A stretch of DNA of 64,000 nucleotides from Candidatus Latescibacterota bacterium. GTDB taxonomy: Bacteria > Latescibacterota > UBA2968 > GCA-2709665. The translations under genes were made by a program, and so were the position numbers. Shown here one piece after another: positions 43,101 through 62,511 of the stretch (positions are counted from its first letter, which is position 1; each line of letters starts with the position of its first letter). The notes under the pieces were generated by a model, which saw only the letters and a program-made list of their open reading frames with translations, was not told the origin of the DNA and ran no database searches. The stretch covers positions 1,952,001-2,016,000 of the forward strand of contig OZ252100.1 of the NCBI GenBank assembly GCA_965248435.1, read 5' to 3'.

Positions 43101-44994
43101 TCCCGAGCCATAGCCGCCCTGAATTGTCCTCCAGAATATTGTGGACGATCTTAGCGTCGAACCCGCGGGTTTCATCGAAGCGCTCGAAGATGCCCTGCCC
43201 CTTGTCGAACCGGTTCAACCCGCGGTCGGTGCAGACCCAGAAGATGCCCCTGGAGTCCTCGTAGACGTCGAAGACGGTGTTCGAACTAATGCTCGTCCCG
43301 TCGTTCTCATCGTGCTGGTGGTGCGTGAAGATCTCGGCCCGCTTGTCGAATCGGTCGAGTCCGCCGCCCCACGTGGCGATCCACATGATGCGCGGGTCGT
43401 CCCGGTCCTGGATGAAACGGACCGACGTGACCGCCGCAAAGCTGCCCGGATCCGCCGGATCGTGTTTGTAGATCTTCCGTTCGCCGGTCCTCAGATTGTA
43501 CCGGTTGAAGCTCTGCTCCCAGCCCACCGCCCAGACGACGTCCGCCTCGTCCGGGTCCTGCAGGATGGTGTAGAACCAGGTATCGTCGGTCAATCGCTTC
43601 TCCACGACGCCGAGGTCCCGGTCGAACAGAACCATGCCTTCCGCCGTGGAAACAATGAACCAATCCCGCTCCGGGTCTTCGTAGAATCCGGCGGGGTACC
43701 CGTGAGGAAGGGTCCGCAAATCTTTTGAGTCGGGCTTATAGTGCGTGAACGTGTGTGTCTCCGGGTGGAATCGATCCAGCCCTGCCCCGAAATGGCCGAT
43801 CCAGATCGTGCCCCGGCTGTCCTCGAATACGGGGACCGCTGCGTCGCTTGCCAGGCTTTGCGGATCGAACGGGTTGTGGCGGAACAGCTCGAAACGATGG
43901 GCCTGCGGGTCCGATTTGTCCACTTTGCCGGTGTTGTCTGTGATCCAGAGAATCCCGCGGCGGTCTTCGAAGGCGCCCTGCACGGCGTCCGAGGTGATGC
44001 TGGCGGGGTCGCCCGGGTCCGCCCGATACTGCTCGTAGGTCCCGTCCTCGGGGTCGAACAGAATCAACCCCACCGCCGAAATCGATGGGATTACCACGAT
44101 TCTGCCGTCGGGCTTCAGGTAAAGATCGCTGATGCTCATCTCTGGAAGGCTGGACGGGTCCTCCGGGTTATGAACATAGTGGTCGAAGGTTCCCGATCGT
44201 TTGTCGAACCGGATCAGACCATCGTCACGCGACCCGAACCAGAGAAAGCCCCGACGGTCCTCTACGATGGCCTGGATTTCGTTGTCCGGGATGCTTCCCG
44301 GGTCCTGGGGATCGTGCAGGTACCGGATAAAGCTCCCGGACGGTTTATCGAAGCGGTTGACCCCGTCGCGCTTCGTGGATACCCACAGGTGGCCGTCTCT
44401 GTCTTCGAACACCGAGTAGATGTCGTTGCTGGACAGACTGCCGTCGTCGTTCGGGTCGTGCCAGTAGTTGGTGAAAGCCCCGGTCCGGGGGTCGAATCGG
44501 CTCAAGCCCTTCTGCGTCCCAAACCACATCGTGCCGTCATCGTCTTCCACGATCGTCCGGGACGACAGGTTGAAGGTATTGCTGGCGAGCGTTTCATTGG
44601 GCCGTTCAGGATCCCGTCTGAACACGTCGAACATGTTTGTCTGTTTGTCGTAGCGGTTCAGGCCATCGTTGGTTCCCACCCAGATGAGCCCCCTGCTGTC
44701 TTCGAAAATCTGTGTGACGAAATCGTTCGATATGGAGCCGGGGCCCTCCTTGAACAGCTTGACGGAGGTGCCGTCGTATCGGGCCATCCCGTTAAAAAAA
44801 GAACCGAACCACAGAAATCCGTCCCGATCCTGAATGATGGCGAACGACGGCTCACCCCCGATATCGAACGCATACTCGAATTTCAGCTGCTCTTCCGAAA
44901 TCGCGGAGTTGCTGGCCCAGGCGAGGTCCCGGCTCGGGAACGCAACCGCAAGAAATGTGAGCAAGGCGCAACAAAGTAAGGGTTTCCGAATCAT
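40102..44994 (-). CDS. Hybrid histidine kinase with periplasmic beta-propellers (Reg_prop) + Y_Y_Y + HisKA + HATPase + 2 REC + Hpt + pseudo-Hpt
   Basis: Repeated EDSRGxxW(V/F)GT blades, [23 protein letters not shown]-box, TAHSLKG. Confidence 0.95.
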
Positions 44995-45003
44995 CGCGAG
45001 AAC

Positions 45004-48000
45004 CTAGTCGTTGGTGTGAAGGTCGGATATCTGGTCCAGCAACTTCGGATAGCGTTTGAGCGTTTCCTGTATTCCGTCCATGTCGAACATCCCGGCCTGT
45101 TCGGTCAGTGCTTCCGCCCACTTGGCGACCGGCGGATAGCTGTATTTCTCACCCAGGTCCTTCACCTCCGAGGCGAAACTCTCGATGCCGCCCATATCCA
45201 GCGTAGTGGACAGCTCTTTGCCGGTGTCCTGTTTCGCTTCGAGCTTCTCCGCCAGTTCCGGCAGTTTCTGCATCACCTCGGAGGAAAGCTCCAGTGGCGC
45301 CTCATCCTCCTCCACTTCCTCGGCCTCTCCATCCAGACCCATCGCTTCGCTGATCGCTCCGACAAGCCGTGTGAGCTCCTGCCCCACTTTTTTCAGATGC
45401 GACTCGACCCGCTTCCCGCCCTTCTTTATCGCTGCCTCCAGGGTCGCGGCCCTCGACTGCAATTCACCGGCCCCGATCGTCCCTGCCACGCCCTTCAGCG
45501 AGTGGGCCGTCCGCTCCGCGGCTTCGAGTTCCCCCTCTTCGAGCTGGGAACGTACCGTCTCGACGGACCTGGCCTCTTCCCCGGTCACAAACCCTTTCAC
45601 GAGCCTTTCGTAGAAGTCCCGCTTCCCCATCACCCGCTTCACCCCGGTCTCGACATCCAGCCCTTCAACGGATTCCAGATCCGCTGTTTCCGATTTTGTC
45701 TCCGCGCTCGCCGCTTTCTGTGAATCTTTCGTGTCCTTTCGTGGACTTTCGCGATCTTTCGTGATCGGTTTGATCCACTTTATGAGCGTCCCGAAGAGCT
45801 GGGCCGGCTCGATCGGTTTGGCGATGTGGTCGTTCATGCCGGCTTCCTCACACTGGTCCTTATCTGACTGCATCGCGCCGGCAGTCATCGCCAGAACAGG
45901 CAGATCCGAAAGCGACTCCTGCTCTCTGATTTTCTTTGTGGCCGTGAGGCCGTCCATCACGGGCATCTGAACATCCATGAGGACAACGTCGTAGTCGCCT
46001 TCCTCCACCATCCGGAGGGCCTCCTCTCCGTTGTTCGCGACGTCGACGACGAAACCGGAATCCGAGAGGAGTTCCGACGCGACTTGCTGGTTGAGGAGAT
46101 TGTCTTCGGTGAGCAGGATGCGGGCACCTTTGAACGGTTCGAGCGCCTCTGCAGATACGCCTTGTTCGATGCTGACCTCCGTGCGCGTCGACTCGCCGCC
46201 CAGTGCGACGATGGCCGCGTCGAACAGCTGCGAGGCGTTGACCGGTTTGGTCAGCGTTGTTTTGATTCCCGCCTTCTCTGCTCCTTCGGACATCTCGTGT
46301 GTGCCGTAGGCGGTGACCATGATGGGCTGGGGCGGGCTTTCCAGCGGGAGGTCATTCATCTTCTCGACCGTCTTCACGCCGTCCATGCCGGGCGGCATGT
46401 GCCAGTCGATAAACAGGATCTCGTAGGGATCCCCCGATTTATCGGCGACGGAGATGCTCTCCAGCGCTTCCTCGCCCCCGGCAGCGACATCGACCCGGAA
46501 CGACATGCTCTTCAGGGTCTCGGACAGGATCTCGCGGGCATACGCGTTGTCGTCCACGGTGAGGACGCGACGTTTGCGCAGATCGAGATCGGGCAGGAGC
46601 GGCTTACTCTGCTCCGTGCCTTTCCCAAGGAGCGCCGTCAACCAGAAAGTAGATCCGACCCCGTGCTCGCTTTCGACGCCGACTTCTCCGCCCATCAGTT
46701 CGGCCAGCTGCTTGGAGATGGTCAATCCAAGGCCGGTACCGCCGTACTTCCGTGTCGTCGAAGTGTCGGCCTGCTGGAAAGACTGGAAGAGCTTGCCCTT
46801 CTGCTCGGGCGTGAGGCCGATGCCCGTGTCCTGGACCTCGAAACGAACGAGCAGGTCGTCGCCGCGCTCTTCGGCCACCCTCGCACGGACGAAGACTTCG
46901 CCCTTCTCGGTGAACTTGACGGCGTTGTTGGCGTAATTGACCAGACACTGACCGATTCGCAGCGCGTCTCCTTTGAGGGCCCTGGGAAAGTCGGGCTCGA
47001 TGTCGAAGATGAGCTCCAGACCCTTCTCGGATGCTTTTTCGCCGACCAGGTTGCCGACGTTGTCGAGGACGCTGTCGAAATCGAAATCGACGTGCTCGAC
47101 TTCCAGCTTGCCGGCCTCGATCTTGGAGAAGTCCAGGATGTCGTTGATGATGCCCAGAAGGTGCCGGCCCGACGTGTGGATTTTGTGGACGTAGTCGCGC
47201 TGCTTGGCGTCGAGGCCAGTGCGAAGCGCCAGATGAGACATGCCGATGATGGCGTTCATGGGGGTCCGGATCTCGTGGCTCATGTTGGCCAGGAAATCGG
47301 CCTTCGATTTGGCAGCGGCCTCGGCGATCTCTTTGGCCTCCTCCAGCTCTACTTCCGCACGCTTGCGGTCCGTGATGTCTAGAATACATTCAATCGCCCC
47401 GATTGTTTCGCCGTTTGAGTCGAAGAGGGGCGTCGCTATTCCGAAAAGGTAAGCTTCCCCTCCGTCTCTGGATTTGAGGTTCGGTACATAATTTTCACCG
47501 GAGATGATGTCACCGTCCCGTTGAATCTGTTCGTACTTGCCGTCCAATTCAGATGGCGGCCGGAGCGCGAGATCGATTAGAATCTCACGCCGCTCCCCAA
47601 AGAAGGGAATCGCATATTCCTGATCGCCCTTGCCAAGCATGTCTTCTGCCTTGGCGCCACTCAAGGCCTCCAACTTCCGATTCCAGAAGACGACTCGACC
47701 TTCGTTATCGATTACGAGCACTGCGTCCGGCAGAAAGTCGATGATCTGGGACATCTGCCGCTCTGACTCGCGGAGAGCTGCCTCTGACTGAGCCAACCGA
47801 AGGGACGTCGCGGTGATCTCACACGCCTTCTCAAGCCAGCGAATCTGCTCTTCGGTGATGGGTTCGAGGAGACAGAGCTCCACAACGCCGGCCAGGTCAT
47901 TGCTCGAAACGAGGGGTGTTGTCACTATCTGACTGGCGGCCGCGCTGCCGAACCCGAAGGACACGGGGTAGGTGCCCTGCGGGGGGATGTGGATAGCCAT

Positions 48001-49794
48001 TTTTCGGGATCTGGCGGCCTGACCGACACTCCCGATACCGAGTCCAAAGCACTTTAGCACTTCCGCATCGGGTGGAAGTGCATGCGCGGCGGTCCTGTAG
48101 AGCTGGCTATCATCTTCCAGGACGTAGAGCGACCCCACAGGAGCTCCGATGAACTCGGTGATGGCAGCCAGCGCCCGTTCCGAGACCCTCTCCACGCTTA
48201 GTTTGCCCTGCATCCGCGAGGTCAGAGCTGCCAGGGTGGACTCCTCCGCGACCCTCGCCTCTGAAGCTTTGGTGAAGTTCTCCAGTTCCTCGGTCCGCAA
48301 TTCAGCCTGCTGGGCGAATTCCTTGAGCTCCTCCTCAGCACGGCTTCTTTCAGTATCCCGAGATGCCAGATCGGTGGTCATCCGGTTGAATGCCTCTGTC
48401 AGAGAGCCGATTTCGTCGCTGGATGTGGCCTCCACGTGCTGGTCGCGTTTGCCGTCGGCATACGCATCGATGGCGCGGCTCAGACGGAGGACCGGTCGAG
48501 AAAGGGTGCCCGACACATAGATGCCGATGAGTAAGATGGCGATAGAAAGGATCACGCTGTCAACGAGGATGTGATTACGGAGTTCGGCAACCGGTTCGAA
48601 GGCCTCGTCAACATCCATTTCCGCGGATATCGCCCAGGTGAGGTTGTCGATCTTCAGAGGCGCGAACGCGCTGAGCACCGACACCCCGCGGTAGTCCTCG
48701 GTGATGCGTGTGTCGGACTGCCCGTTCAGGGCATTTTCAGCGGCTTCCGTTCGAATCTCCTGGCGGCCGATGGTCGTTCCGTCGGATTTCATCATGTCCA
48801 ACACGAAGCGATCGACGCCTCGTTCTTCCTGGGCCCTGAGGAATTCGATGGGGGTCTGAATGAAGAAGCGGGAGTCGTTGCGCATGGTGAAATCTTCACC
48901 CACGAGATAGGTCTCTCCCGTGGCTCCGAGACCTTCTTTTTCCCAATGCCCGCTGCTCGTCATCGTGGAGTTGATGTCGTGAACGTCGAGCTGAACGACC
49001 AGTACTCCGACTTTCCTGCCGTCTTTGAAGATGGGAGAGGCTACGAAACTTGCCGGATGCATCCCGGACGGAGGATAGAGCTCGAAGTCGACGAGGTGGA
49101 CCGATCCCTCGTTTGGGGATGCGGCCGCTTTCCTGAATGCGTCAACGATATGGGTACCCGCATACGGCCCGTTGTAGAGGCTTGTCGCAAAGTCAGGCTC
49201 CTTCAACACCGAGTAGACGACAAACCCTGTCTGGTGATCGATGAATAGGATGTCGTAGAATCCGACTTTCTGTTTGATATTCTCCAGCGCCGGGTGGTAG
49301 TCCGCGTGCACCTGGGCGTAGGGCTCGAGCCGCCCACCTGACGCCACATCGCGCTCCAGAACATATGCAGACTGAAGCAGAGTGCCCGCGTTCGTCCGGG
49401 GCAGCGCTTTGGAGAGCGAGAGCACTTGGTGGGTGGCGTCCCGATTAATAGTGGGTAAATAATGATCGCGGTAGTGAGACCGGAGTCTTACCTCCTGTTC
49501 AGCGCTTCTGGCGTCATCGCCGATCGCGTTGAACGCCTCCGAGAAGCGGGACATCGCGTCGGCGATCGCACGGCCCTGGGCGATGACGACGGTCTCGTTC
49601 CTCACCCGCTGGAAGTAGGCCTGGATTTGGCGGCTCCGGGTTTCCCGGATCCCGGTGAGCTGCTTGAACGTGGCCTCACTCAGGGCATTTCGGGCATCCC
49701 AGTAGCTCTGCAGCCCGGTTACGAGAACAGATGCCAGCCCGACAAGCAGGAGGGACATCATCAGTTTCGTTCTGATATGGAGGTTCTTGAACAT
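45004..49794 (-). CDS. Hybrid histidine kinase: dCache + HAMP + GAF + PAS + HisKA + HATPase + 2 REC + Hpt + pseudo-Hpt
   Basis: YDILFID..G.VVYSV.KE.DFATSL (Cache), [23 protein letters not shown] (HAMP), [13 protein letters not shown] (PAS), H-box, Hpt. Confidence 0.95.
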
Positions 49795-49887
49795 ATTCCA
49801 GGCCTTTCGTAATTACTGCCTTCGTTTGCGCTTTTGAGTTCAGCCGCGTCCTTCGTCTGACGTGATCTTGCTTAACCTTTTCGAGGA

Positions 49888-51306
49888 TCAACGAGTTTCA
49901 TGAGTCGGCCGGTTTCCGTTCCCTGTCTCCTGAGAGAAACGCAGTGCGGTCGCGGTGATCTCTGCCGCCTTGGTCAGCCATCGACCGCGCGCAGCGTCGA
50001 ACTCCGTGAGGAAATACAGCTCGACAACCCCTACCAGGTTGTCGCTGGCGGTTAAGGGACACGTTACGACGTGCCGCGGCGACGTTCGGCCCAGCCCGAA
50101 GGTGATAGACCATTCCTGATCGCCGGGATCGAGCACCTGCATCTCCCTGACCTTGGCCGTGTGACCGATACTGCCAGCGCCCAGCGGGAACGCGCTTTGC
50201 GTTTCCGCTTCAGGCGGCAGCGCATGATCTGCGTGCCGATGGAGATGCCCGTCTCTTTCAAGCACATAGAGCGCCCCGGCAGCGGCTCCCGTATTTTCGA
50301 TTATGGAAGTGAGCGCAGCTTCCGCGATCCGGTCCGCAGTCAGCTTCTGGAGGCGTGACGAGAGGGCGGAAAAACTCGCCTCCGATTCTGCCTTTTCCTG
50401 CAATTCGGATGTGCGCTCCTGAACCTGCTGTTCCAGTTCTGCGCGGAATCGAACCAGCTCATCCTTATCGGCCTCGCTCTGTTTCAGCGCGGCGCTTCGT
50501 GCCTCGACCTGATCTTTGAGCCGTCGTGAGCCGGACCTGAGCTGGCCCATGGCGATCGCCAGGCATCCCAGGCCGAGCAGTGCCGTAATGCCCAGAAGGG
50601 CCATCACGGTCTGCAGGCCACCGCTCATCTCTTCTCGAATCGCATCCAGCGGCAGGACAACCTCCAGCACGCCCCGAACATCGCCTTCCACCCACCCGGT
50701 CCTCGGCGTCTGCGGATGTGTATTGTGACAGTTCACACATTCTGCTCTCATCCGGTCGGCTGTCGCGTAGCGCAACGAGGGCCTGCCTCGGTGCTCTTCG
50801 AACCGATAAAACGGCCTGTCCGGCTGTTCGGTCAGCCCCTTCCAGGCCGCTCTCCTGAAGTCATCCAGCAAACCCCCCTCCGACGCGCGCCAGGGAAAGG
50901 GGTAGGGGCTGTAGAGCGACGCCGCCAGGCCTGTCCCCAGGGAACCGATCTGCTCCCCAAGCTTGATACTCAGGGTCGCCGGCAGTGGGATGGCGCCATC
51001 GTGCTCGTCATAGTCGTGTCTGATATCCACTCCGTGACCTCGAACGCGGCTCACCACATCGGAGGTGTAGATTGTCCGGAAAGTTGCCAGCATCTGGGCG
51101 GTTCGTGAGGCGTTGTTGATCGCGTTCGACTCGATCAGCCTGTCTGAAAGCTGAAAGGCGTACCAGCCCAGAAAGGCGAGGCCGATCAGGAGAACCGCAC
51201 TCAAGACGGGCACCGGTCTGTCGGATACGATCCGAAAAAACCAATTCCGTGGCCGAGGCGAACGTTCTGCGACCCCTTCAGGTGTGTTGGTATCATTCTC
51301 TTTCAA
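49888..51306 (-). CDS. Output-less receptor: TM + DUF3365/Tll0287-like c-type heme domain + TM + coiled coil + GAF
   Basis: PLPATL, YSPYPFPWR, RYATADRMRAECVNCH (CxxCH), GDVRGVLEV. Ends about 12 aa after the GAF. TTG start after AAAGGAG. Confidence 0.85.
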   Translation of the reverse strand: MKENDTNTPEGVAERSPRPRNWFFRIVSDRPVPVLSAVLLIGLAFLGWYAFQLSDRLIESNAINNASRTAQMLATFRTIYTSDVVSRVRGHGVDIRHDYDEHDGAIPLPATLSIKLGEQIGSLGTGLAASLYSPYPFPWRASEGGLLDDFRRAAWKGLTEQPDRPFYRFEEHRGRPSLRYATADRMRAECVNCHNTHPQTPRTGWVEGDVRGVLEVVLPLDAIREEMSGGLQTVMALLGITALLGLGCLAIAMGQLRSGSRRLKDQVEARSAALKQSEADKDELVRFRAELEQQVQERTSELQEKAESEASFSALSSRLQKLTADRIAEAALTSIIENTGAAAGALYVLERDGHLHRHADHALPPEAETQSAFPLGAGSIGHTAKVREMQVLDPGDQEWSITFGLGRTSPRHVVTCPLTASDNLVGVVELYFLTEFDAARGRWLTKAAEITATALRFSQETGNGNRPTHETR

Positions 51307-51351
51307 AGCGTCAAAACTCCTTTCCGAACTGTGGGACTTGACCGATACCCA

Positions 51352-53112
51352 TCAGGACCTCGACTCATGAGCGAATCGGAGCGATGTTGCGGCGATCTCA
51401 CACGCCTTCCCAAGCCAGCGGATCTGTTCTTCAGTGATGGCTTCCAGGAGCAAAAGCTCAACAACTCCGGCCAGCTCATCATTCGAGACCAGGGGTGATG
51501 TCACGATCTGGCAGGGGGTAGCAGTGGCGAACCCGAAGGTGATGCCGTTGGTTTCCGGCGGGGGCGTCTGGACGGACAGCTGTCTGGAACGTGCCGCCTG
51601 ACCGACACTCCCTGTTCCGAACGCGAAACTCGTCAGGGATTCCGCGTCGGGTGAAAGGGCGTACGCTCCGGCTCTGTGCAGCCGGTTGTCTCCATCCAAC
51701 ACGTAGAGCGCGCCCGACGGTGCGCCGATGAACTCAGCGATGGAGGACAGCGTACGCCCCGCGACCTCCGCGACGGTCAAATTGCCGTGCAACTGTGAGC
51801 TGAGTTCGGCCAGTCTGGACTCCTCCATCGCCCTCGCCTGAGACGCCTCCGTAAGGCGCTGCAGTTCCTCAGAGCGCGTTTCCGCCTGCTGGGCGTATTT
51901 CTTTAGTTCCTCCTCTGCTCTCTGTATGTCCGCACGCATCGCATTGAACGACAGCGTCAGGTCGGCAATCTCATCGTCCCCGTCGACCGGGATATCCTTG
52001 ATAAGTTGCCCGGATGCAAAGTCCAACGTTGCCGTCGACAGCGTCTCGATGGGTCTCGTGATGCGTTCCGAGCTTCGCCTTGACAGAACCCACGAAGTAA
52101 TGATCATCAGCGCAATGACGCTAAATAGCAGAACAAGGGCTAAGTTGCTGACAGAGTTCGCCCATCTTGCATCCTCTTGCATAAGACGATCCTGATCGCT
52201 AGTCATCGCGCTCAACATGTCGATACTCTTACGGGCAAGTGGCACCGCCTTGTTCGTCATGAGATACTGTGAGATATTCCAGCGGGAGGATTCACGCATC
52301 TCGATGATTTGCTGTGCCATACGGCAATACACATCAAACTCGTTGCGAAGCCACGTCAATCGATCGAACTGGGAACGAGTGAGCATCTTGCGAAATGAAT
52401 CAACCTGATCAAGCCGATCGCCCGCGAGACCAACCGACACTTCGAAGCCCATCTTGTACTCGGCTCCAGCATCCGCTACATAGTTTGTCAGCTCTGTTTC
52501 GCTGGCCAGGAAGACTCCACGAAAATCTGCCAGAACCACTAGAAGTGCGCTACTTCCTCCCAGCGTCTTCTCCTCGTCAATCAGACCCGAAACCGTTTGC
52601 CGAATCTCCCGCGCCAGCGGTTGCAGCTCCTCCATAAGCAGCACCCGGGAGGGCTCATTCCCTGGGGTATTCGCTACATCTTCGATCCACCACTGCCACT
52701 CCTTCAGCTCCATCAGGGTTTCGACGGCCTCAGTCAGCAGTTTGCGGTCCTTTTCATCCCACTCAGAGCTGAGGGACTTCAGGGAGAGCATCGCCGGCTC
52801 GATCTCACCCTCCCACGCGTGATTTCTGTCCTCCCGAAAATCCGGGTCGGCCAGCGCAACCCATCCCCGCAGCGTGGCCAGAGAATGCTGTACACCGCTG
52901 AGCGCCATCGTCGAAGCTTGAAGGGCAGGCGCTCGGACCTCGGAAAGGGCGCGAACATTCGACCGAAGCCAGATCGTCGTCGCAAGAGCAACGATGAGCA
53001 GAACCACACCGAGGGCAGCCACCTGGAGGTGGGAGCGCAGGAGCCTTGCTCCAATGCCTTGCCTGGTTTCAAGACTACGGTTCGGAGAATCCATCAAGTC
53101 AAACTCCGCCAA
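51352..53112 (-). CDS. Output-less receptor: TM + helical (4HB-like) sensor + TM + HAMP + coiled coil + GAF
   Basis: Two TM helices, ITRPIETL...DDEIADLTLSFNAM HAMP, GAF ending RFAHESRS*. Confidence 0.85.
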   Translation of the reverse strand: MAEFDLMDSPNRSLETRQGIGARLLRSHLQVAALGVVLLIVALATTIWLRSNVRALSEVRAPALQASTMALSGVQHSLATLRGWVALADPDFREDRNHAWEGEIEPAMLSLKSLSSEWDEKDRKLLTEAVETLMELKEWQWWIEDVANTPGNEPSRVLLMEELQPLAREIRQTVSGLIDEEKTLGGSSALLVVLADFRGVFLASETELTNYVADAGAEYKMGFEVSVGLAGDRLDQVDSFRKMLTRSQFDRLTWLRNEFDVYCRMAQQIIEMRESSRWNISQYLMTNKAVPLARKSIDMLSAMTSDQDRLMQEDARWANSVSNLALVLLFSVIALMIITSWVLSRRSSERITRPIETLSTATLDFASGQLIKDIPVDGDDEIADLTLSFNAMRADIQRAEEELKKYAQQAETRSEELQRLTEASQARAMEESRLAELSSQLHGNLTVAEVAGRTLSSIAEFIGAPSGALYVLDGDNRLHRAGAYALSPDAESLTSFAFGTGSVGQAARSRQLSVQTPPPETNGITFGFATATPCQIVTSPLVSNDELAGVVELLLLEAITEEQIRWLGKACEIAATSLRFAHESRS

Positions 53113-54127
53113 ACAGTTGTCCGGGTATACGTTCCACCTGCTCCTGCAGCTCCGTCAACTGACGTTCCAGAATGCCCGCTCGCTGATAGACGTGCGAGGG
53201 ATACTTTTGTCCTGGATGGTAAACTTCTATAGGCGGAGCCGCGTTTGGTACGTGGCTGTGGATGTATGCCAACTCGGAAACGAGCAGGGATGCGATATCG
53301 TAGACATCGCTGGGAACGACGCTGTCGATAGATGAGTCCGTTAGTTTCAAGTCCAGCGTCTCTAATCCCCCTTGGGCCGCAATCCGCCTTGTGCGTTCGA
53401 AGCAGCCGACCAGCCGTCGGTAGACGTCGGCCGGACGCTTGCCGCGCTCGTATTGTGGGGAATCGGGAATCCGGTTCGCCTCCGGAAATTGGGCAAGCAG
53501 ACGAGAGGTGTAGCTCACTGCCAGTGTCACCTGCTGAAACACATCTCCAGGCGAGACCTTGTCATCCAACAGAAGGTTCAATTGTCGGTTAGTCTGGACG
53601 ATCGACTGAAACACGTCGGTAGGAGTCTTGCTGTCGTCCCGCTCGGGCGCAATGGTTTCCCCCGAAGTTGCAATGGCTTCGCGGATCCGATCTATCCGAG
53701 CCAGCGCGGCGTTAACAGCCGAAAAGACGTGGAACGGACGAATGTCTTTTGCGGGGATCTCGGGTACTGGAGCGCGCTCCCGGGTCTGTTCGAAGCAAAG
53801 CCGGTCTGCCTTTCTGAAAAGTGTTAGTGCCTGAAAGAAGACTTCGCGCGGAGCTACATTGGTGACATCGATCTCAGGCTGGGTGTTGGCCGGCCTGCCC
53901 ATCTCGAACCGAATTGCCTCCAGCCTTGCCTGGAGAAGCTCGACCTTGGCGAAGACGTGCGCCGGTGTGATTTCCTGCCCTATGGGCTGCGATCGCGCGG
54001 ACTCCGAAAGGATCCCTTGAAAACAGACCAGAACGACTGTGGCTCGCCAAAACATCGTATGCGGTTTCAAATTCAACTCTCCCCGGCGTGCGGCGGAAGA
54101 ATTCTCCTGGTGCCGATTATTCGGCAT
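53099..54127 (-). CDS. Exported helical-repeat protein of unknown function
   Basis: Signal-like segment, then eight P-x-x-V-(F/Y) initiated helices. Overlaps the start of the downstream receptor. Confidence 0.7.
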   Translation of the reverse strand: MPNNRHQENSSAARRGELNLKPHTMFWRATVVLVCFQGILSESARSQPIGQEITPAHVFAKVELLQARLEAIRFEMGRPANTQPEIDVTNVAPREVFFQALTLFRKADRLCFEQTRERAPVPEIPAKDIRPFHVFSAVNAALARIDRIREAIATSGETIAPERDDSKTPTDVFQSIVQTNRQLNLLLDDKVSPGDVFQQVTLAVSYTSRLLAQFPEANRIPDSPQYERGKRPADVYRRLVGCFERTRRIAAQGGLETLDLKLTDSSIDSVVPSDVYDIASLLVSELAYIHSHVPNAAPPIEVYHPGQKYPSHVYQRAGILERQLTELQEQVERIPGQLFGGV

Positions 54128-54320
54128 GAGATTGTGTCTCGCCGATTAATTTGACGAACTCTCTGAAGGCTTGCTGAGATGCCATCATCGCCTCTCTGAT
54201 GGCCGCCACCGATCGCGTCAGCTCCTCATCTACAAGGGCCAGCTGCTTTAAAATGGTAATCCAAGGCCGGGGCCGCCGTACCTTAGCGTCCGTTTCCTTT
54301 CAAAGCGTCCCCAATTCCTT
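54128..54320 (-). pseudogene. Relic of a deleted hybrid kinase (RBS + 5' end fused to an Hpt end)
   Basis: Reads KETDAKVRRPRPW...QLALVDEELTRSVAAIREAM. 54186-54246 matches 40435-40495 at 47/61 nt. The RBS/TTG region copies the start of the 51306 gene. Confidence 0.7.
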
Positions 54321-54333
54321 TCTCTAACCCGGC

Positions 54334-55947
54334 TCACGACTCCTTACCGGTCTTGATGGACGAGACCATCGTTCCCTCTCGGTCGGCCTTCACACGTGAC
54401 CTCGACTCGTGGGCGAACCTAAGCGATGTGGCGGCGATCTCACACGCCTTCCCCAGCCAGCGGATTTGTTCTTCAGTGATGGCATCCAGGAGCAGGAGCT
54501 CTACAACACCGGCAAGTTCATCATTCGAGACCAGGGGTGATGTCACGATCTGGCAGGGGGTAGCAGTGGCGAACCCGAAGGTGATGCTGCTGGTTTCGGG
54601 CGGGGGTGTCTGGACCGACAGTTGTCTCGAACGTGCCGCCTGACCGACACTCCCCGATCCGAACGCGAAACTCGTCAGGGATTCCGCATCCGGTGAAAGG
54701 GCGTGCGCCGCTACCCTTTGGAGCAGGTTGTCGCCGTCCAACACGTAAAGCGCTCCCGACGGTGCGCCGATGAATTCGGCAATAGCTGCCAGTGCTGTAT
54801 CCGCGACTTCCTCCTCGGTCAGTTTGCCCTGCAGCTGCGAAGTCATACCGGCCAGACTGGACTCCTGCGTCGCCCTCGCCTGAGACGCTTCCGTGAGGCG
54901 CAACAGTTCGTCTGAGCGCGCCTTTTCCGATTTGGCGGCTTCCTCTGCCATCCTCGTGGCATCGGAGAGTTCGGCGGTCCGAAGCCGCACTCTTTCTTCG
55001 AGGCTGCGGTGTGCTTCCTGAAGGGCCCGTTCTCCCCGTCGATTCTGTTCGACGAAGATCGACAGGAGGACAGTCGTCAGGGTGATCACGAAAATGAAGA
55101 GCTGGAGCAGCAGGAGTGAATGGTTCGAAGATGCTACGACAAAGGAGCTCTGCTTCGCCAGGGTTCCTGCAATCGCGATCGTCTCAACCACCACGATAGA
55201 TGCCGTAGCTCCGGGGGTTCCAAGGCGTAGCGCCGACCAGAGCAAAAAAGGCAGGGGAAGAAACACCAGGGGGTAGCCCTGAGTGGCCGTTCCGAAAGTG
55301 GTCGTAAACGCGATCAGGCTGCTCGTGACGATGGCTGCAAGGAGTAAGACGATCTCAACCGACCGGATGCCCGAATCGGTGAGGGTCCGGTCGCGAAGCC
55401 ATGCCAGGAGAAGGGGCGTGGCGACAAACACACCTACCGCATCGCCCAGCCACCAGGTCAGCCAGAGTTCTCCCCACGCCTCCAGGGGTACGACTCCGCT
55501 TACACACAGGCTCGTGCTGCCGAAGGAGGCGCTGACGAGACACATCACCGGAACGATCGCACAGAATCTCAGAAAGGCGGAAACGGTTTCGAGCGGCGGG
55601 CCTCCGATGTACCTCGCAATGAGCAGTCGACCCCACAACGGCTGGAGGAAGGAGCCAACCGCGATGACTGTCCCTGCAGAGAATGTTCGCAAGATCGTAG
55701 ACGCGGATGCGAAGTCGAGGATACTGCTGTTCCCCAGATAGGCACCGATAAACGTTCCGAGCCACGCCCGATTTCCGAAGAGGAGAAACGCTGCGAGCGC
55801 CAGCCCTGCTGGTGGCCAGACCGGGGTGACGTTACCCGGGGGAATCGCGGCCGTTTGCCCGACTCTGGCCAATACATAGTATAAGAGGGCGATCGAAACC
55901 GTTTCGAGGGCATAGCGCCAGTTATTGATCCTGCTGCTGTCGGTCAT
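54334..55947 (-). CDS. Output-less receptor: MASE1 + coiled coil + GAF
   Basis: VTPVWPPAGLALA and TWWLGDAVG (MASE1). GAF ends RFAHESRSRVKAD plus a short tail. Alternative TTG start at 55983. Confidence 0.88.
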   Translation of the reverse strand: MTDSSRINNWRYALETVSIALLYYVLARVGQTAAIPPGNVTPVWPPAGLALAAFLLFGNRAWLGTFIGAYLGNSSILDFASASTILRTFSAGTVIAVGSFLQPLWGRLLIARYIGGPPLETVSAFLRFCAIVPVMCLVSASFGSTSLCVSGVVPLEAWGELWLTWWLGDAVGVFVATPLLLAWLRDRTLTDSGIRSVEIVLLLAAIVTSSLIAFTTTFGTATQGYPLVFLPLPFLLWSALRLGTPGATASIVVVETIAIAGTLAKQSSFVVASSNHSLLLLQLFIFVITLTTVLLSIFVEQNRRGERALQEAHRSLEERVRLRTAELSDATRMAEEAAKSEKARSDELLRLTEASQARATQESSLAGMTSQLQGKLTEEEVADTALAAIAEFIGAPSGALYVLDGDNLLQRVAAHALSPDAESLTSFAFGSGSVGQAARSRQLSVQTPPPETSSITFGFATATPCQIVTSPLVSNDELAGVVELLLLDAITEEQIRWLGKACEIAATSLRFAHESRSRVKADREGTMVSSIKTGKES

Positions 55948-55979
55948 CAGATCCTCGGCAGAAGCGAAAGCTCGTCTGG

Positions 55980-57311
55980 TCAACCGGCTTCCCCACGTGA
56001 CCTCGACTCGTGGGCGAACCGAAGCGACGTTGCGGCAATCTCACACGCCTTCCCCAGCCAGCGGATTTGCTCTTCAGTAATGGCTTCCAGGAGCAGGAGC
56101 TCTACCACACCAGTCAGCTCATCATTCGAGACCAGGGGTGATGTCACGATCTGGCAGGGGGTAGCAGTAGCGAACCCGAAGGTGATGCCGTTGGTTTCCG
56201 GCGGGGGCGTCTGGACGGACAGCTGTCTGGAACGTGCAGCCTGACCGACGCTCCCTGTTCCTAACGCGAAACTCGTCAGGGATTCCGCGTCGGGCGAAAG
56301 GGCGTGCGCCCCGGCCCTGTGCAGCCGGTCGTCGCCGTCCAACACGTAAAGCGCGCCCGACGGCGCGCCGATGAATTCGGCCATGGCTGCCAGCGCTGTA
56401 TCCGAGATCTCCTCAACGGTCACCTTTCCCTGCAGCTGCGAAGTCAAAGCAGCCAGACTAGATTCGTCAGCCGCTTTCGCTTCCGATAGCTGAGAAAGAC
56501 GCTCGAGCTCCGCGGTCCGCTCTGCGACCTGTTCCTCGAGACGGTTGCGGTAGCCGACCAGCTCCGCTTTGTCACGAGCCAGGCTGTCCGACATTCGGTT
56601 GAACGACTCTTCAAGAACCTTGAGCTCGTTGCGACCCGGTGTGGCTACATTCACGTGAAAATCCTCAATATGATCGGGATCGAAGCCTTCTACGGCCGAG
56701 GTCAAGATCGCAAGGGGTCGTCCCAGAAGTCGTCTGAAGAACCAGAGGAAGATGAGACAGAGAGCGGCCGCAGCGACACAGACTTGGACAATCGTCAGTC
56801 CAATCCCCAGCGCGAGCTTTTGCAGAACGACGTCTGAGCTAGAGTAGATGATCGCTTTACCCACCTTCTGACGATTATCTCCCTCGCCGAAGGTGATTTC
56901 GCCAGCGTACGAAATAATCTCTCTCAAGCCTCGGCTTGTCGTGCGGTGGTCCGCAGCGTCGATGGATACGACCACACCCCTGTCGTCGATCACGGTCCCG
57001 CCTATACAGATCGTCTTGCCGGATTCGTCGCGGATCTCGCATCCAACCACAGACGGCAGACTCACCATGCCTTCGAAGAACCTCTTAACTTGCTCGGTGT
57101 TGATATCCCACAATGCTTGTGCAAGGCCCGGACCGAAGGACTTATGGATCAGACGGAGTTCGTCCTGGACTCTCTCTTTTACACTGTAGTACTGAACAGT
57201 CACATCCGCAGCAAGCAGCACCAGGGCCACGCCGATGTAGCAGGCGAGAACTCGCACGAGAAGCTGTTGTGCGACAGAGTTTTTCTGCATCAGCCATTTG
57301 AACGGATTCAT
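55980..57311 (-). CDS. Output-less receptor: TM + periplasmic sensor + TM + HAMP + coiled coil + GAF
   Basis: LAQALWDIN periplasmic domain, RPLAILT...NELKVLEESFNRM HAMP, GAF ending RFAHESRSRGEAG*. Confidence 0.85.
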   Translation of the reverse strand: MNPFKWLMQKNSVAQQLLVRVLACYIGVALVLLAADVTVQYYSVKERVQDELRLIHKSFGPGLAQALWDINTEQVKRFFEGMVSLPSVVGCEIRDESGKTICIGGTVIDDRGVVVSIDAADHRTTSRGLREIISYAGEITFGEGDNRQKVGKAIIYSSSDVVLQKLALGIGLTIVQVCVAAAALCLIFLWFFRRLLGRPLAILTSAVEGFDPDHIEDFHVNVATPGRNELKVLEESFNRMSDSLARDKAELVGYRNRLEEQVAERTAELERLSQLSEAKAADESSLAALTSQLQGKVTVEEISDTALAAMAEFIGAPSGALYVLDGDDRLHRAGAHALSPDAESLTSFALGTGSVGQAARSRQLSVQTPPPETNGITFGFATATPCQIVTSPLVSNDELTGVVELLLLEAITEEQIRWLGKACEIAATSLRFAHESRSRGEAG

Positions 57312-57394: not shown

Positions 57395-58168
57395 TCATTC
57401 GATATATGCATCGATCAGCTCCTGATACCTTCCACTCGATCGAAGGTGCTTCAGACCTTCATCGAAGTCATCTCTGATGCCTTCGTCCCTGAAATTGACC
57501 TGGTAGTGGGTCTCTTTCCCAAAGATGTCGTGAAAGGTCACTTCAGCTGAGGTATCCAATTGGTCTGACAATCGCTTACGAAACCATAGAAATATGGTCC
57601 TATCCACGATAATGACGTCGGCTCGGCCCTTCCAGAAGAAGAGATTCTGGTGTTCCTGATTCGCGAATTCCTTGTACCTCCCGAGGTGGTCACCCTCTGC
57701 TTCGGGTCCGTAGAACTTCACGAATTCAGGCCCCAGGTTCAGATAGGCATTCTGCCAGGCTACGGTGCGGTAGTTGGTCAAGTCCCGGATCGCATCGACC
57801 GTAACCTTGTCCTTCTTCTTGGAAATGGCATAGTTGATATAGGTGACAAAGTCTTCCGAGTAGTAGGTTCCATCTTCACGGTGTTGAACAGAGACCGCTC
57901 CATCGAACCCACTCCTGGCAACAGCATCTGCCAGTCTGCTGTTCGGCATATGACTCTTATGTCCTACTGTGTGTCCTCTGTATCCTAGCGCTTCTCGGAC
58001 AATGGCGATCTCGAATCCTCTTCCCATCCCGTTCTCCTCAAAGACGAAAGGGGGACGTCCCTGACCGAATGCCATTCTCAGGTCTTCCGCTTGACTTTCT
58101 GGAGGCACGAGCGTACAGGACACCAGAAGAGCCACGAAAAGCAGCTCGCCAAAGTGCGCTCTGATCAC
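57395..58168 (-). CDS. Periplasmic substrate-binding protein (family 3, amino-acid type), orphan
   Basis: RPPFVF..GFEIAIVREAL, VAWQNA, GRADVIIVD, RDDFDEGLKHLRSSGRY. Start may be GTG 58168 or upstream (58306). No permease or ATPase adjacent. Confidence 0.85.
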   Translation of the reverse strand: MIRAHFGELLFVALLVSCTLVPPESQAEDLRMAFGQGRPPFVFEENGMGRGFEIAIVREALGYRGHTVGHKSHMPNSRLADAVARSGFDGAVSVQHREDGTYYSEDFVTYINYAISKKKDKVTVDAIRDLTNYRTVAWQNAYLNLGPEFVKFYGPEAEGDHLGRYKEFANQEHQNLFFWKGRADVIIVDRTIFLWFRKRLSDQLDTSAEVTFHDIFGKETHYQVNFRDEGIRDDFDEGLKHLRSSGRYQELIDAYIE

Positions 58169-58302
58169 CCTACTCGTTTCAGCGGTTTGATAACACCGCG
58201 CTGGCCTCACCGAACACCCAATGAACAAAAAGCGCAGCGGTGCTCGTTGCGCCATCGTGAAACCCTCCCCATCGAAAGCTTTACGCGGATTACACAACTC
58301 GA

Positions 58303-60420
58303 TCATCTTTCCAATAACCTGTCATCCTTGACATGATATCGAACAGCCTTGACCGGCTTTGCAATCTTCTCTTCGTGTTTCCCGATGCGAATCGTCACAC
58401 CCTGAAAGGCGGTACTCCAAACCACGATTGACGCGGTTCGCCATCGATAGACTTGAAGCTCCAATTCCTTTCTCTCGGCAAGCAGTTGTTGATTGATCTG
58501 AACGATTTTGCCAAGCTGCTGGGCAGAAAGCGCCAGGATCTTACGTTGAGGACCTGTTGTGGCCGCGAGCATCTTTTGAATCTGAGCGACGTCGAGCCTC
58601 GGAAGTCCAAATTTTCCGAGGTGTTGCAGAATCTGTTTGTTGCCCTTCTGAATGTTCTGTTGAAGTTTTTCCAACTTGCGCCCGTGTTCCAGATCCATCC
58701 CCGCATTCAGCGAGGTTCGTGTTCCGGCAAGGGTACCTGCGAAGTGGGCGTCAATCCCCCTCATGGCCCACGACTGCCCGCCCCAGATCGTGCCGCCCCG
58801 AAGTCCAAGCGCGCGGCGTGCTATGATGATGCCCCCTGCCCGTAAGAGGGCGTCGTCTGCGTGACTCCCCAGTATGATGTCCCTGCCGCTCTGTACTTTC
58901 GCCTCCTTCACGAACTGCGTCCTTACGTCGCCCAGCGCCATCACAGTCGTCTTTCTACCCAGGATCCCTTCGCCCGTCGTAACGTTCCCGTGAGAGAATA
59001 CCTTTGCTCCGGATTCCACTGCACCGGTTATCGTGACGTCACCCGCAGCCTTAACGGAGAAAGTCTGCTTCACGGACCCCACGACGCACACCTCACCCCT
59101 GAAGTCAAGGTTCCCTGTGCCGAAACCAACATCTCCGTCTATGGTCAACAGCTCATACACCGAAACCTTGTCGTCCGTTACTTTCAAAGATCCTTCTATC
59201 GTTGAAGAGTAACTCGCGACGCCGTCTTTTGTCTCAACCCGAACATTTTCACCCGCTTCCAATTTTCGCTCATCCCCGTCTATCGCCGGTACTTCGTTCC
59301 CCCTGACATCTTTTCCCGGTATCCCTGAGCCTGGAGGAGTAACTCGCACAACCACCTGATCCGGCTTCACGTTGGGACCGATGTTGGCAGGCGTGAACTC
59401 GCGGGAGCCGTCTGTGTTCTGTTTTCCCTCTCTTACCGCTGTATCCACCAGGATTTTCAATTCTGAATCCTTGCCCTTTTTGGCGGTTCCGGATGCAATC
59501 AGATATCCGCCCCGCTCGTGCTTACCCTCCGCCTGAAGGCTGAGAAGCTTCCCGATCTCCTCCTCCTCGATGCCCTCCACCACCTCTAGCTCTTCGAGCC
59601 ACGACTGAATCATTTCTCGTGACACCTTCGGGTGATGATCCATCAGACACCAGTAGACCTCCAGTCCGATGGGATCGACCCAAATCGGTGGAAGCACGGA
59701 AAGCGTGTTGTGCAGCAGACAGACATAGCCGTAACGCGTCGCGAGGAACTCGTCGTCCTTCGCTTCCACGAACTGGCCTAAACTGGGTCTCCCGGGGAGA
59801 GGCTGTTCGTCCGTCAGCCTTCCGCCGAACACATCGTATCCCGCCTGCGCCTTCTCTTCCTTGTGCACTTGTGCCAACACATCGCCGGGTGTCGCGGACA
59901 GAGCGGGCGTGGCGCTCAGATCGGACAAAGACAGCTTCTCCGCCCAGAGAACGGGGTTCAACGTCCCTGAAACCACAGCCAGATTTTCTGCAGAGATCGA
60001 CTTCCCTGGTTCTCTGGGATTTCGGTATTCTGTCCACTCCTCGCCCAGTGCCGCGCCCCCTTCGGCCACGGGGAACCACCTGATCCGGTCCCCCTCAAGG
60101 CACTCGCGAATCTGCTGCATATCAGGTATCTGGGCCTCAAAGAAGCTGCACTCCTTGAGCAGTTTGGTGACCTGCCCGGCGCTCTTTATCTCAGGGGCGA
60201 TGCGCGAGAGATAAGCAATCTTCCGGTCCTCCCGAAAGGCGACCTCGATCTCATCAACGGCGACTCTGTAAAACCATCTGCCCTGGTCCAGCCCGGCTTC
60301 CGGACCGGCCTGCTGGTGGATCGCGCCCTCGATAGGCCTGCCCATCCCCTGGACAATCCACCCCGTCTCGGGTCCGGGTGGAAGCTTTTCGAATACGCTG
60401 TCTTCCCCTGTTTCAGCCAC
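58303..60420 (-). CDS. FapA/DUF342 family protein
   Basis: PGKDVRGNEV, IDGDVGFGTGNLDFRGEVCVVGSV, AAGDVTITGAVE, FQGVTIRIG. The N-terminal part partly repeats the GYDVFG/ATRYG motif. Confidence 0.82.
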   Translation of the reverse strand: MAETGEDSVFEKLPPGPETGWIVQGMGRPIEGAIHQQAGPEAGLDQGRWFYRVAVDEIEVAFREDRKIAYLSRIAPEIKSAGQVTKLLKECSFFEAQIPDMQQIRECLEGDRIRWFPVAEGGAALGEEWTEYRNPREPGKSISAENLAVVSGTLNPVLWAEKLSLSDLSATPALSATPGDVLAQVHKEEKAQAGYDVFGGRLTDEQPLPGRPSLGQFVEAKDDEFLATRYGYVCLLHNTLSVLPPIWVDPIGLEVYWCLMDHHPKVSREMIQSWLEELEVVEGIEEEEIGKLLSLQAEGKHERGGYLIASGTAKKGKDSELKILVDTAVREGKQNTDGSREFTPANIGPNVKPDQVVVRVTPPGSGIPGKDVRGNEVPAIDGDERKLEAGENVRVETKDGVASYSSTIEGSLKVTDDKVSVYELLTIDGDVGFGTGNLDFRGEVCVVGSVKQTFSVKAAGDVTITGAVESGAKVFSHGNVTTGEGILGRKTTVMALGDVRTQFVKEAKVQSGRDIILGSHADDALLRAGGIIIARRALGLRGGTIWGGQSWAMRGIDAHFAGTLAGTRTSLNAGMDLEHGRKLEKLQQNIQKGNKQILQHLGKFGLPRLDVAQIQKMLAATTGPQRKILALSAQQLGKIVQINQQLLAERKELELQVYRWRTASIVVWSTAFQGVTIRIGKHEEKIAKPVKAVRYHVKDDRLLER

Positions 60421-60423
60421 GAC

Positions 60424-61386
60424 TCACTCCCCCAGGTCTAACAATGCGGATACTTCGACATTCCCGGCTTCCAGGTCCTCATTCAGCTGGGCCGCACGGA
60501 TCAGCGTGGCCGACTCGCCCCCGAGTCCGAAAAGCGAATTCAGCAAGTCCTTACGATTAACGCCCAGGCCTCCTGGCTTGTCGATCCACAGAACCCCCAA
60601 TGGCTCTTCCCCATAAAGGATGGGGACCATGGCCTCCTCGTCCTCTCCCGTCCGGGGTTTGCTGTCCAGATAGGTCTCCGCAACCGGCGAACCCCCCTCC
60701 CCGATGGGAATCTTCTCCTGTCCTCCCAGCTGTGCTTCATCCTGAATCGCGCCTGGACCGGAAAACCCGATGGCCGCCTTCATCTCCAACCTCTTCCCTT
60801 CAGCATCAGGCCGATAGATAGCAGCCTTTTCCACACTCAACACATCCCCAACGACGTGAAGGGTAGCTTCATAGGCCTCTATCAGCGTCGGAGTGGAATT
60901 CTGCAGATGGGTGAGTTTGTCGCGCCCGTCCAGCTCCCGCACACGGTGGTGGAGCTGAGCCGTCCTCTTCTCGACGAGATGTTCCAGCTCTTGCTGTAAA
61001 TGGTAGACCGTGAGGTGTGTGTTCACGCGCGTCAGAAGCTCGATCGTGTTGAACGGTTTTGTCACATAATCCACCGCGCCCAGCTCGAATCCCTTCACCA
61101 CGTCGTCGGTCTCGACCTTTGCGGTCAGAAAGATGATGGGGATCTCCTCTGTCTCGGGATTCTCCTTGAGCTGCTTGCAGGCCTCGAACCCGTCCATCAC
61201 CGGCATCATCACGTCGAGCAGGATCAGGTCGGGATGAACCTTCCCCACGACATCGAGGGCCTGTTGGCCGTTCTGGGCGACGTTGATCTGATACCCTTCC
61301 TCCTTCAACACGGTGCCCAGCACCTGGATGTTCTTTACCGTGTCATCCACGATCAGGATCCGCGACCCCTTGTTCTCTAAATTCAT
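60424..61386 (-). CDS. Response regulator REC + C-terminal GAF-like domain, no enzymatic or DNA-binding output
   Basis: REC KNIQVLGT...LLDVMMP, then AAIYRPD..RLEMKAAIG..MVPILYGEEPLGVLWID. Confidence 0.85.
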   Translation of the reverse strand: MNLENKGSRILIVDDTVKNIQVLGTVLKEEGYQINVAQNGQQALDVVGKVHPDLILLDVMMPVMDGFEACKQLKENPETEEIPIIFLTAKVETDDVVKGFELGAVDYVTKPFNTIELLTRVNTHLTVYHLQQELEHLVEKRTAQLHHRVRELDGRDKLTHLQNSTPTLIEAYEATLHVVGDVLSVEKAAIYRPDAEGKRLEMKAAIGFSGPGAIQDEAQLGGQEKIPIGEGGSPVAETYLDSKPRTGEDEEAMVPILYGEEPLGVLWIDKPGGLGVNRKDLLNSLFGLGGESATLIRAAQLNEDLEAGNVEVSALLDLGE

Positions 61387-61424
61387 GTCTGCTTCTCCTG
61401 TATGACTTTAGATGCGGATCGAAC

Positions 61425-62450
<1,026 letters not shown>

Positions 62451-62511
62451 ACTCGGAACTCCGTTTGGGTTGTTTTTGAGAGCCGCCAAGCCATTTTTCG
62501 GCAGGATTTGT

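Follow-up and report, generated by a model that had tools for sequence, protein, structure and literature searches.

The merging of many signals into one decision by bacteria is commonly attributed to the wiring of phosphorelays or to contacts between kinases, such as those of RetS and GacS. In chemoreceptor arrays and in the stressosome with its RsbR paralogues, variable inputs are combined with a conserved C-terminal module through which many receptors dock onto a single kinase. Truncated etr1 of plants is said to signal through other ethylene receptors. In this study, we closely examined a cluster of six consecutive minus-strand open reading frames (ORFs) at positions 45004-57311 of a 64,000-nucleotide stretch (here called the window; contig OZ252100.1, positions 1,952,001 to 2,016,000) from the genome of a Candidatus Latescibacterota bacterium (here named G000; other G and L numbers denote genomes and loci of relatives). 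Four of the ORFs (A443, B549, C586 and D472, here called satellites) encode membrane sensors that end after a GAF domain, and they lie beside the gene of a hybrid histidine kinase, K1596, with a GAF domain of the same type.

Contact between a sensor and another kinase is described for Pseudomonas aeruginosa, where RetS replaces the GacS homodimer interface by a heterodimer and blocks trans-autophosphorylation, with inputs converging on one output (PMC8498467). RetS keeps its HisKA-HATPase core and binds via DHp (PMC8498467), in contrast to the satellites, which lack DHp and CA and share a helix and a GAF domain as their only common cytoplasmic module. Furthermore, the satellites are encoded in tandem with the kinase, to which they would bind. 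The pseudokinase ChrS of Corynebacterium glutamicum has lost catalysis and shapes signaling via heterodimers with its paralogue HrrS; this variant is a frameshift from laboratory evolution that keeps DHp and belongs to a paralogous two-component system pair rather than to a sensor array (PMC9491836). In the NreA-NreB system of Staphylococcus carnosus, a GAF-fold protein without enzymatic output regulates a two-component kinase system, but NreA is a small soluble GAF protein and itself the nitrate sensor, whereas the satellite GAF ends membrane receptors and is paralogous to the kinase GAF (PMC8199190). Plant ethylene receptors also consist of a membrane sensor followed by GAF, and the kinase-less ETR1(1-349) comprises the transmembrane and GAF parts without histidine kinase or receiver, with a further protein of ~200 kDa calculated at the GAF region (PMC2799528). 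Such truncations are laboratory-made and the plant receptors share one input, ethylene, whereas the satellites are natural, under selection and equipped with four different inputs.

Unlike the receptors of chemoreceptor arrays and the stressosome, the satellites carry neither MCPsignal nor STAS; their module is a GAF domain, and the kinase is a hybrid histidine kinase rather than CheA or RsbT. None of RetS-GacS, ChrS, NreA or the ethylene receptors is a natural array of transmitter-less sensors that share the GAF domain of a neighboring kinase. In the full-text collection that was searched, no account of a bacterial array built in this way turned up, a result confined to that collection.

Four sensors without output domain beside a hybrid kinase

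The cluster comprises the following features, all on the minus strand:

A443, 55980-57311, minus strand: two transmembrane (TM) segments, CHASE5-like periplasmic domain, HAMP, helix and GAF, TGA stop; without kinase
B549, 54334-55983, minus strand: MASE1 sensor, relic of the DHp entry, helix, GAF and a 20-residue tail; without kinase
X342, 53099-54127, minus strand: protein of 342 amino acids without Pfam match, between B549 and C586
C586, 51352-53112, minus strand: two TM segments, orphan periplasmic domain of ~270 amino acids, HAMP, K1596-like coiled coil and GAF
D472, 49888-51306, minus strand: Tll0287-like (DUF3365) putative heme-c sensor with CxxCH, TM segment, helix and GAF; without HAMP or kinase
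K1596, 45004-49794, minus strand: dCache-HAMP-coiled coil-GAF-PAS-HisKA-HATPase-REC-REC-Hpt hybrid kinase
Shared GAF cassette (last 135 codons, repeat family D1), minus strand: C586 51355-51759, A443 55998-56402, B549 54397-54801

Pfam analysis revealed GAF_2 (PF13185; GAF itself is PF01590) at 40.0-45.8 bits in the four satellites and at 57.5 bits in K1596, with a cut-off of 28.6. K1596 furthermore harbors dCache_1, HAMP, PAS, HisKA, HATPase_c, two REC domains and Hpt. In contrast, neither HisKA, HATPase_c, REC, PAS nor any other output family was detected in A443, B549, C586 or D472 (E<=0.01), and Pfam reported neither MCPsignal nor STAS in any of them. Taking the joint presence of HisKA and HATPase_c as the mark of a histidine kinase, K1596 and the adjacent K1630 are histidine kinases and all four satellites are not. 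Only a few residues follow the last aligned GAF helix (none in C586, 5 in A443, ~12 in D472 and 20 in B549), and a DHp remnant, ~10 residues of its entry, is seen in B549.

The sensor parts differ from each other. MASE1 (PF05231) covers residues 29-315 of B549 (profile positions 3-299 of 299; E 8.3e-39), and D472 matches the Tll0287-like family (DUF3365; PF11845) with 49.6 bits at a cut-off of 24.1, with a CxxCH motif visible in the translation as in a putative heme-c sensor. The CHASE5 match of A443 (PF17149) lies just under the cut-off (26.6 versus 27 bits) and covers 61 of 108 profile positions; the A443 orthologue of G080 reaches 25.3 bits. HAMP was detected in A443 and C586, and D472 lacks it. 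The periplasmic part of C586 matched no Pfam family, and among 8000 scored candidates, limited to lengths of 322-1026 amino acids, the only relative of its sensor part was C586 itself.

Among A443, B549 and C586, identity amounts to 40% across the N-terminal helix, 92% for the GAF core and 100% for the C-terminal helix. The entire linker and HAMP-proximal coiled coil of K1596 is found in C586 only, and the N-terminal helices of A443, B549 and D472 differ from it. An AlphaFold2 (AF2) model of C586 residues 394-586 (predicted local distance difference test [pLDDT] 96.6) consists of a 46-residue helix and a complete GAF domain, the C-terminal helix of which (model residues 168-192) ends at the stop codon. 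Its top Foldseek matches are the solved GAF domains 3ci6, 3e0y and 4g3v (E 1e-9 to 2e-8). Identity to the nearest solved GAF domains, including ligand-binding ones, is 12-20%, so no ligand can be deduced for the satellite GAF, and a search of the GAF sequence profile against the PDB gave no match at E<=0.01. Across the genome (5.67 Mb, 2 contigs), this GAF type occurs in five copies, all of them in this cluster, and K1596 is the sole enzyme encoded with it.

These results agree in most respects with the initial annotation, which had described four intact but output-less ORFs. Each of the four frames runs without interruption from start to stop, both motifs quoted there are present in the translations, and the MASE1 and heme-c DUF3365 labels are confirmed by Pfam, for D472 also by the CxxCH motif. 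The statement that the neighboring kinase alone shares the GAF type of the satellites holds and extends from the window to the whole genome. The proposed homology of coiled coil plus GAF stands for the GAF domain; the coiled coil is shared in part, with 40% identity among A443, B549 and C586 and the whole linker in C586 only. The label '4HB-like' for the periplasmic part of C586 found no backing in Pfam, where no family matched. Taken together, A443, B549, C586 and D472 are very probably functional receptors without an output domain.

Verification of the assembly

We examined whether kinase cores had been lost through misassembly, which the initial annotation had named as a possible refutation, or through a collapsed assembly. 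Short-read contigs were built independently from four runs of one sample, possibly the source sample of the genome itself; they verify the assembly and do not represent an independent occurrence of the cluster. Contigs without a single difference span the C586 end, spacer and D472 start (50890-51501), X342, the spacer and the B549 end (53414-54466), and B549 with the A443 end (54558-56067, 1510 nucleotides [nt]). The region of the K1596 start and D472 end (49700-50916) is likewise covered with 0 differences and bridged by a contig of 3645 nt. All four junctions of GAF end, stop codon and next gene are thus bridged, misassembly is rejected, and the truncations are genuine. The short-read contigs break only within the repeated GAF stretches, as the repeats predict. 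Loose contig ends leading into unrelated sequence were observed at 52673, 52707 and 54172 in three to four of the four runs and may stem from another strain in the sample or from a variant with rearranged sequence.

Selection on the shared cassette

Pairwise comparison of A443, B549 and C586 over 155 GAF codons yielded a synonymous divergence (dS) of 0.34-0.50, a non-synonymous divergence (dN) of 0.056-0.077 and a ratio of the two (omega) of 0.15-0.17. For the last 135 codons, 28-38.5 synonymous versus 12-15.5 non-synonymous differences were counted (omega 0.11-0.13; Fisher p 1.5e-9 to 2.8e-13). In the final 45 codons up to the shared end, synonymous differences number 10-17 and non-synonymous ones 1-2 (dS 0.37-0.80, dN 0.01-0.02, omega 0.012-0.055; Fisher p 1.6e-5 to 3.8e-11). 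This pattern is found in all three pairs, which indicates that each copy is separately constrained by selection. The claim that the GAF differences are mostly synonymous is therefore borne out for these three genes, and the dN/dS analysis proposed for the truncated genes reveals purifying selection on them; D472 lies outside the test, being so diverged that dS is saturated.

A different explanation would be that the four genes are decaying remnants of tandem kinase duplicates, with conservation due to gene conversion or to selection before truncation. We regard this as highly improbable. It gains from the preceding 45 codons (mid-cassette), where dS is just 0.085-0.29, which suggests some gene conversion. 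However, dS is highest exactly where the C-terminal helix is invariant and dN is near nil in all three pairs, so gene conversion cannot account for the invariance. In addition, all four frames are open throughout, and conservation of the sensor domains equals that seen in real kinases (identity to orthologues of 62% for A443, 65% for B549 and 70% for D472 versus 71% for K1596 and 64% for K1630), unlike those of decaying genes.

Distribution among relatives

The GAF subfamily is patchily distributed, with matches in 3 of 41 close genomes (E<=1e-10) and in 6 of 168 genomes of the phylum including G000 (E<=1e-25). The whole signaling cluster seems to be part of the extra 1.5 Mb that G000 has relative to the same-genus genome G001.

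Orthologues of K1596 in G038 and G080 show 71% identity over the first 470 residues. In all four lineages that have a K1596 orthologue, a kinase-less GAF or GAF-PAS sensor is encoded directly upstream on the same strand: G000, G038 (L011/L013), G080 (L012/L039, with overlapping frames) and the metagenome contigs L040/L042. The type of sensor (CHASE5-like or Tll0287-like) and its end (GAF or GAF-PAS) differ between these lineages. We searched for pairs in more than one genome, defined as a kinase-less GAF(-PAS) sensor adjoining, on the same strand, a hybrid kinase whose GAF belongs to the same subfamily, and found them in G000, G038, G080, L040/L042, G082 and L041. In G082 (L036, contig 62), a GAF-terminal protein follows right after two GAF hybrid kinases, and in L041 a PAS-GAF-PAS protein ends 13 nt ahead of one. 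The kinase stands alone in G113 (L038) and at nine loci that are more distant and whose kinase genes are complete (L016, L017, L043, L045, L046, L047, L050, L052 and L053). Kinase-less GAF(-PAS) sensors beside the orthologous GAF kinase, corresponding to the check in other genomes that the initial annotation had proposed, thus occur in four of four lineages with a K1596 orthologue.

That annotation had also named as decisive against its reading a situation in which orthologues in relatives are all full-length kinases and the copies evolve neutrally or are not expressed. One part of this was found, in that the B549 orthologue, which comes from another family, is a full kinase; the orthologues of A443 and D472 are kinase-less, and evolution is not neutral. 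The kinase-less state of A-type and D-type sensors is common to two families of the order, which also speaks against decaying remnants.

In a maximum-likelihood tree built from 51 GAF segments by quick search, with SH-aLRT as the sole support measure, the GAF domains of A443, B549 and C586 were placed in one clade (support 92) inside the K1596-type clade (98), next to long proteins of the kinase type. D472 belongs to a separate clade (95), the four members of which are all kinase-less, and a third clade (100) consists of GAF-terminal proteins with still other inputs, namely P0031 of G082 (PDZ, Reg_prop and Y_Y_Y domains) and P0029 (PocR domain). As kinase-less members occur in three GAF clades, the kinase-less state arose at least three times.

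Among library representatives, 36 matches at E<=1e-30 were obtained, 16 with and 20 without a kinase core according to local typing. Eight of these 20 end <=33 residues past the GAF domain, including P0001 and P0002, which are the window's own. Inspection suggested that P0029 and P0031 are genuine, that P0017 and P0020 have been cut, and that P0012 (one of the 20, outside the eight) is frameshifted. P0262, considered as a distant Tll0287-GAF twin of D472, was rejected because it ends in apparent frameshifted kinase sequence. Such cut or frameshifted entries mean that the library counts overstate kinase-less forms, and we relied on the genome loci instead.

In G038, a third GAF hybrid kinase is broken by an in-frame TAG inside its GAF domain, and the K1596 orthologue is cut after the first REC domain beside transposase-like ORFs (L013 3578-6187 and 8540-12520); the GAF kinase family is undergoing turnover in this genome. 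In the G005-type organism, the K1596 orthologue lies in two frames with the dCache N-terminal part separate (L007 3-2110, L040 4506-9604, L042 8532-13630), either as a real split gene or through a shared frameshift. Birth-and-death turnover of the kind seen in G038 and the frameshifted or fragmentary entries P0012, P0017, P0020 and P0262 are what decaying remnants would lead one to expect, as is a cluster that was not found in G001.

Origin of the satellites

B549 residues 7-355 are 64.5% identical to a complete MASE1-HisKA-HATPase kinase of G038 that lacks GAF (L056 3212-5299). The two proteins are collinear through the post-membrane helix, and homology ends at about residue 355, in the first turns of the phospho-His helix, beyond which B549 continues as a C586-type helix and GAF. 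This switch at the DHp entry indicates that the kinase core was replaced in frame by the cassette, a swap unlike the decay of a remnant.

A443 has 62% identity in its first 250 residues with a CHASE5-HAMP-GAF-PAS-PAS protein of G080 that lacks a kinase. Between its sensor and the A-type protein of G005 and L040/L042, which terminates in GAF-PAS, identity is 45-48%. The GAF domain of A443, however, matches that of C586 at 93-100% identity in the final 90 residues, which indicates that an older GAF-PAS end of A443 was overwritten. D472 has orthologues of 65-74% identity in G038 (D'), P0023 (7.4-Mb contig) and P0153 (0.6-Mb contig), all of which stop after GAF-PAS and are kinase-less; compared with these sequences, D472 has lost its PAS domain.

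The DNA of A443, B549 and C586 can be aligned for ~15-20 nt past the common last residue, including past the C586 stop. Taken with the B549 junction, the most economical history would be that the cassette was already truncated before it spread. The satellites would descend from histidine kinases that lost the whole transmitter, and one helix-GAF-stop cassette from a K1596-type kinase paralogue would have been moved by recombination onto three unrelated sensors, displacing a complete HisKA-HATPase core in B549 and a GAF-PAS end in A443. The satellites are genuine and of long standing, and selection acts on them.

Proposed coupling to K1596

The common end of the satellites, in which a complete GAF domain is flanked by a signaling helix and a free C-terminal helix, would be their output and serve as a protein-protein docking module. 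The most likely target would be the presumably co-transcribed neighbor K1596, the only other protein of the genome with this GAF type. Three points suggest docking on K1596: no other paralogous partner is present, the pairing has been kept across lineages, and the free helix at the end does not vary. The satellites would relay a binding-protein ligand (A443), membrane state (B549), a periplasmic cue (C586) and heme-c redox state or gas (D472). The signal would pass via the helix into the GAF domain, which would touch the cytoplasmic stalk of K1596 and raise or lower autophosphorylation; a mixed 1:1 dimer would probably be inhibitory, and a lateral dimer-to-dimer contact could act either way. 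We give about even chances to the statement as a whole, i.e., that the satellites are output-less sensors descended from kinases and act on K1596 through their GAF end. The anatomy, the correct assembly, selection, the recombination junction and the conserved synteny are established by the data; that the satellites bind K1596, by which surface and with which sign they act is what we infer, and the GAF-GAF contact by which the satellites were initially proposed to feed the kinase is the least secure part. Complex prediction for the helix plus GAF of K1596 with that of C586 gave scores of 0.08 and 0.10 (mark 0.32); obtained from 9-row alignments without controls, they weigh neither way.

Several observations weigh against this coupling. 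Searches of the same-genus genome G001 (97% complete, 4.1 Mb) with the GAF, FapA and the K1630 sensor gave no match, and the whole cluster was not found there, so the genus can do without it. Between the cassette and K-type GAF domains, identity is 0.46-0.63 in the helix segments and 0.60 in the core, and no extra conservation was found on the helices presumed to form a parallel dimer. The N-terminal helices of A443, B549 and C586, with their 40% identity, fit poorly to a common coiled-coil partner. The D-type GAF is 34-52% identical to the K type by segment and PAS-terminated in relatives; this different GAF lineage with its PAS ends implies that the contact may not be GAF-to-GAF. Furthermore, a 1:1 dimer of satellite and kinase would leave the DHp unpaired, which by analogy to RetS-GacS would mean inhibition, not activation. 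Finally, the timing of the truncation relative to the divergence of A443, B549 and C586 rests on parsimony.

The following further genes lie around the cluster:

K1630, 40102-44994, minus strand: second hybrid kinase, GAF-less, downstream of K1596
SBP_bac_3-like periplasmic binding protein, 57395-58306, minus strand: directly upstream of A443 (26.3 bits, cut-off 26.4)
FapA, within 58303-62561, same strand as the cluster: 705 amino acids, upstream
REC-GAF protein, 60424-61386, minus strand: 320 amino acids, upstream of the cluster
REC-adenylate/guanylate cyclase, 61425-62561, minus strand: 378 amino acids, upstream of the cluster

The satellites could instead be independent of K1596, with a GAF end that acts on another target, such as the upstream REC-GAF protein or REC-cyclase, the GAF-less K1630, or a ligand, e.g., a cyclic nucleotide from the cyclase; adjacency to K1596 would then reflect shared ancestry by tandem duplication and no partnership. 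Both the REC-cyclase and the REC-GAF gene lie upstream on the same strand, and the cAMP-binding GAF 5w10 is among the nearest solved folds of the C586 model. The absence of excess conservation at an interface towards K1596 also agrees with this explanation, as does a C-terminal helix that is 100% identical among A443, B549 and C586 and 63% identical to the K type, which would fit a common third partner. On the other hand, pairing with a K1596 orthologue persists in four of four lineages despite varying sensors and ends. The REC-cyclase, REC-GAF and FapA genes were not found beside the pair in L039, L013 and L042, where the corresponding queries matched only REC domains inside kinase genes, and the identity of 12-20% to ligand-binding GAF domains gives no indication of a ligand. 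We consider a target other than K1596 rather unlikely.

If K1596 is the target, the satellites might act solely as signal-dependent inhibitors. In this sub-case of the docking described above, with the sign of the effect fixed, mixed parallel dimers via helix and GAF would leave the K1596 DHp unpaired and block trans-autophosphorylation, making the satellites natural dominant-negative proteins. C586, which has the entire HAMP-proximal coiled coil of K1596, would be suited to such dimers, and precedents exist: GacS trans-autophosphorylates and is blocked when RetS replaces its homodimer interface by a heterodimer (PMC8498467), and a catalytically dead ChrS variant alters signaling, with heterodimers of ChrS and HrrS described (PMC9491836). 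However, the K1596-like N-terminal helix is present in C586 only and differs in A443, B549 and D472, and pure inhibition appears unlikely to us.

Docking on K1596 with either sign may be carried one step further. We tentatively suggest, as a doubtful but conceivable extension, that helix-GAF-stop is a portable docking module that can make a subunit of a multi-receptor complex around one hybrid kinase out of any membrane sensor, former kinases included. One phosphorelay would then read five physically coupled inputs, and new inputs would be recruited by recombination at the signaling helix.

X342, start and stop codons and neighboring genes

X342, an ORF that the initial annotation had passed over, has an N-terminal hydrophobic segment and nine matches to the motif P..(V/E)(F/Y), eight of which lie at the start of a predicted helix, with a spacing of ~24-40 residues. 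Its stop is located 4 nt ahead of the ATG chosen by gene callers for C586, for which the called protein (P0151) has 580 amino acids. From gene position alone, X342 may be a new periplasmic repeat protein that partners the orphan sensor domain of C586.

An orthologue of the SBP_bac_3-like protein (35% identity over 232 amino acids) is encoded ahead of the A-type, CHASE5-like sensor in L009 (1814-2386), L040 (1662-2324) and L042 (5688-6350). That such a gene precedes the CHASE5-like sensor in this cluster and again in the G005-type organism suggests that the A443 input depends on a binding protein, and the SBP_bac_3-like protein is likely the ligand-binding partner of the A443 periplasmic domain.

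All four satellites end in TGA, as do K1630 and X342. The TGA of C586 and the TTG start of D472 are in the same frame, with 15 sense codons in between (51307-51354, minus strand). Stop-codon recoding or read-through from C586 into D472 was considered and taken as coincidence, since D472 has its own AAGGAG 10-15 nt (9-nt gap) ahead of the TTG start, K1630 and X342 also end in TGA, and no other sign of recoding was seen.

The upstream FapA, REC-GAF and REC-cyclase genes (58303-62561) encode possible downstream response regulators of the hybrid kinases, with a possible cyclic-nucleotide link. Furthermore, K1596, K1630 and the MASE1 kinase of G038 have a common tail of ~80 residues past the Hpt or kinase core (45004-45300 and 40102-40400, minus strand; L056 ~5000-5299), with conserved acidic, aromatic and YPP positions and no Pfam family.

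Implications

In this natural cluster, kinase cores were given up while the sensors were retained; this took place several times independently, and strong selection on the GAF end followed. The clean recombination junction of B549 marks where modules can swap in nature. If docking on K1596 is true, GAF domains of kinases would have an assembly role besides ligand binding, many 'sensor-only' HAMP-GAF or GAF-PAS proteins in databases would be explained, and a modular route for adding inputs to engineered kinases would be at hand. If the module also proved to be portable, it would represent a two-component counterpart of chemoreceptor arrays or the stressosome.

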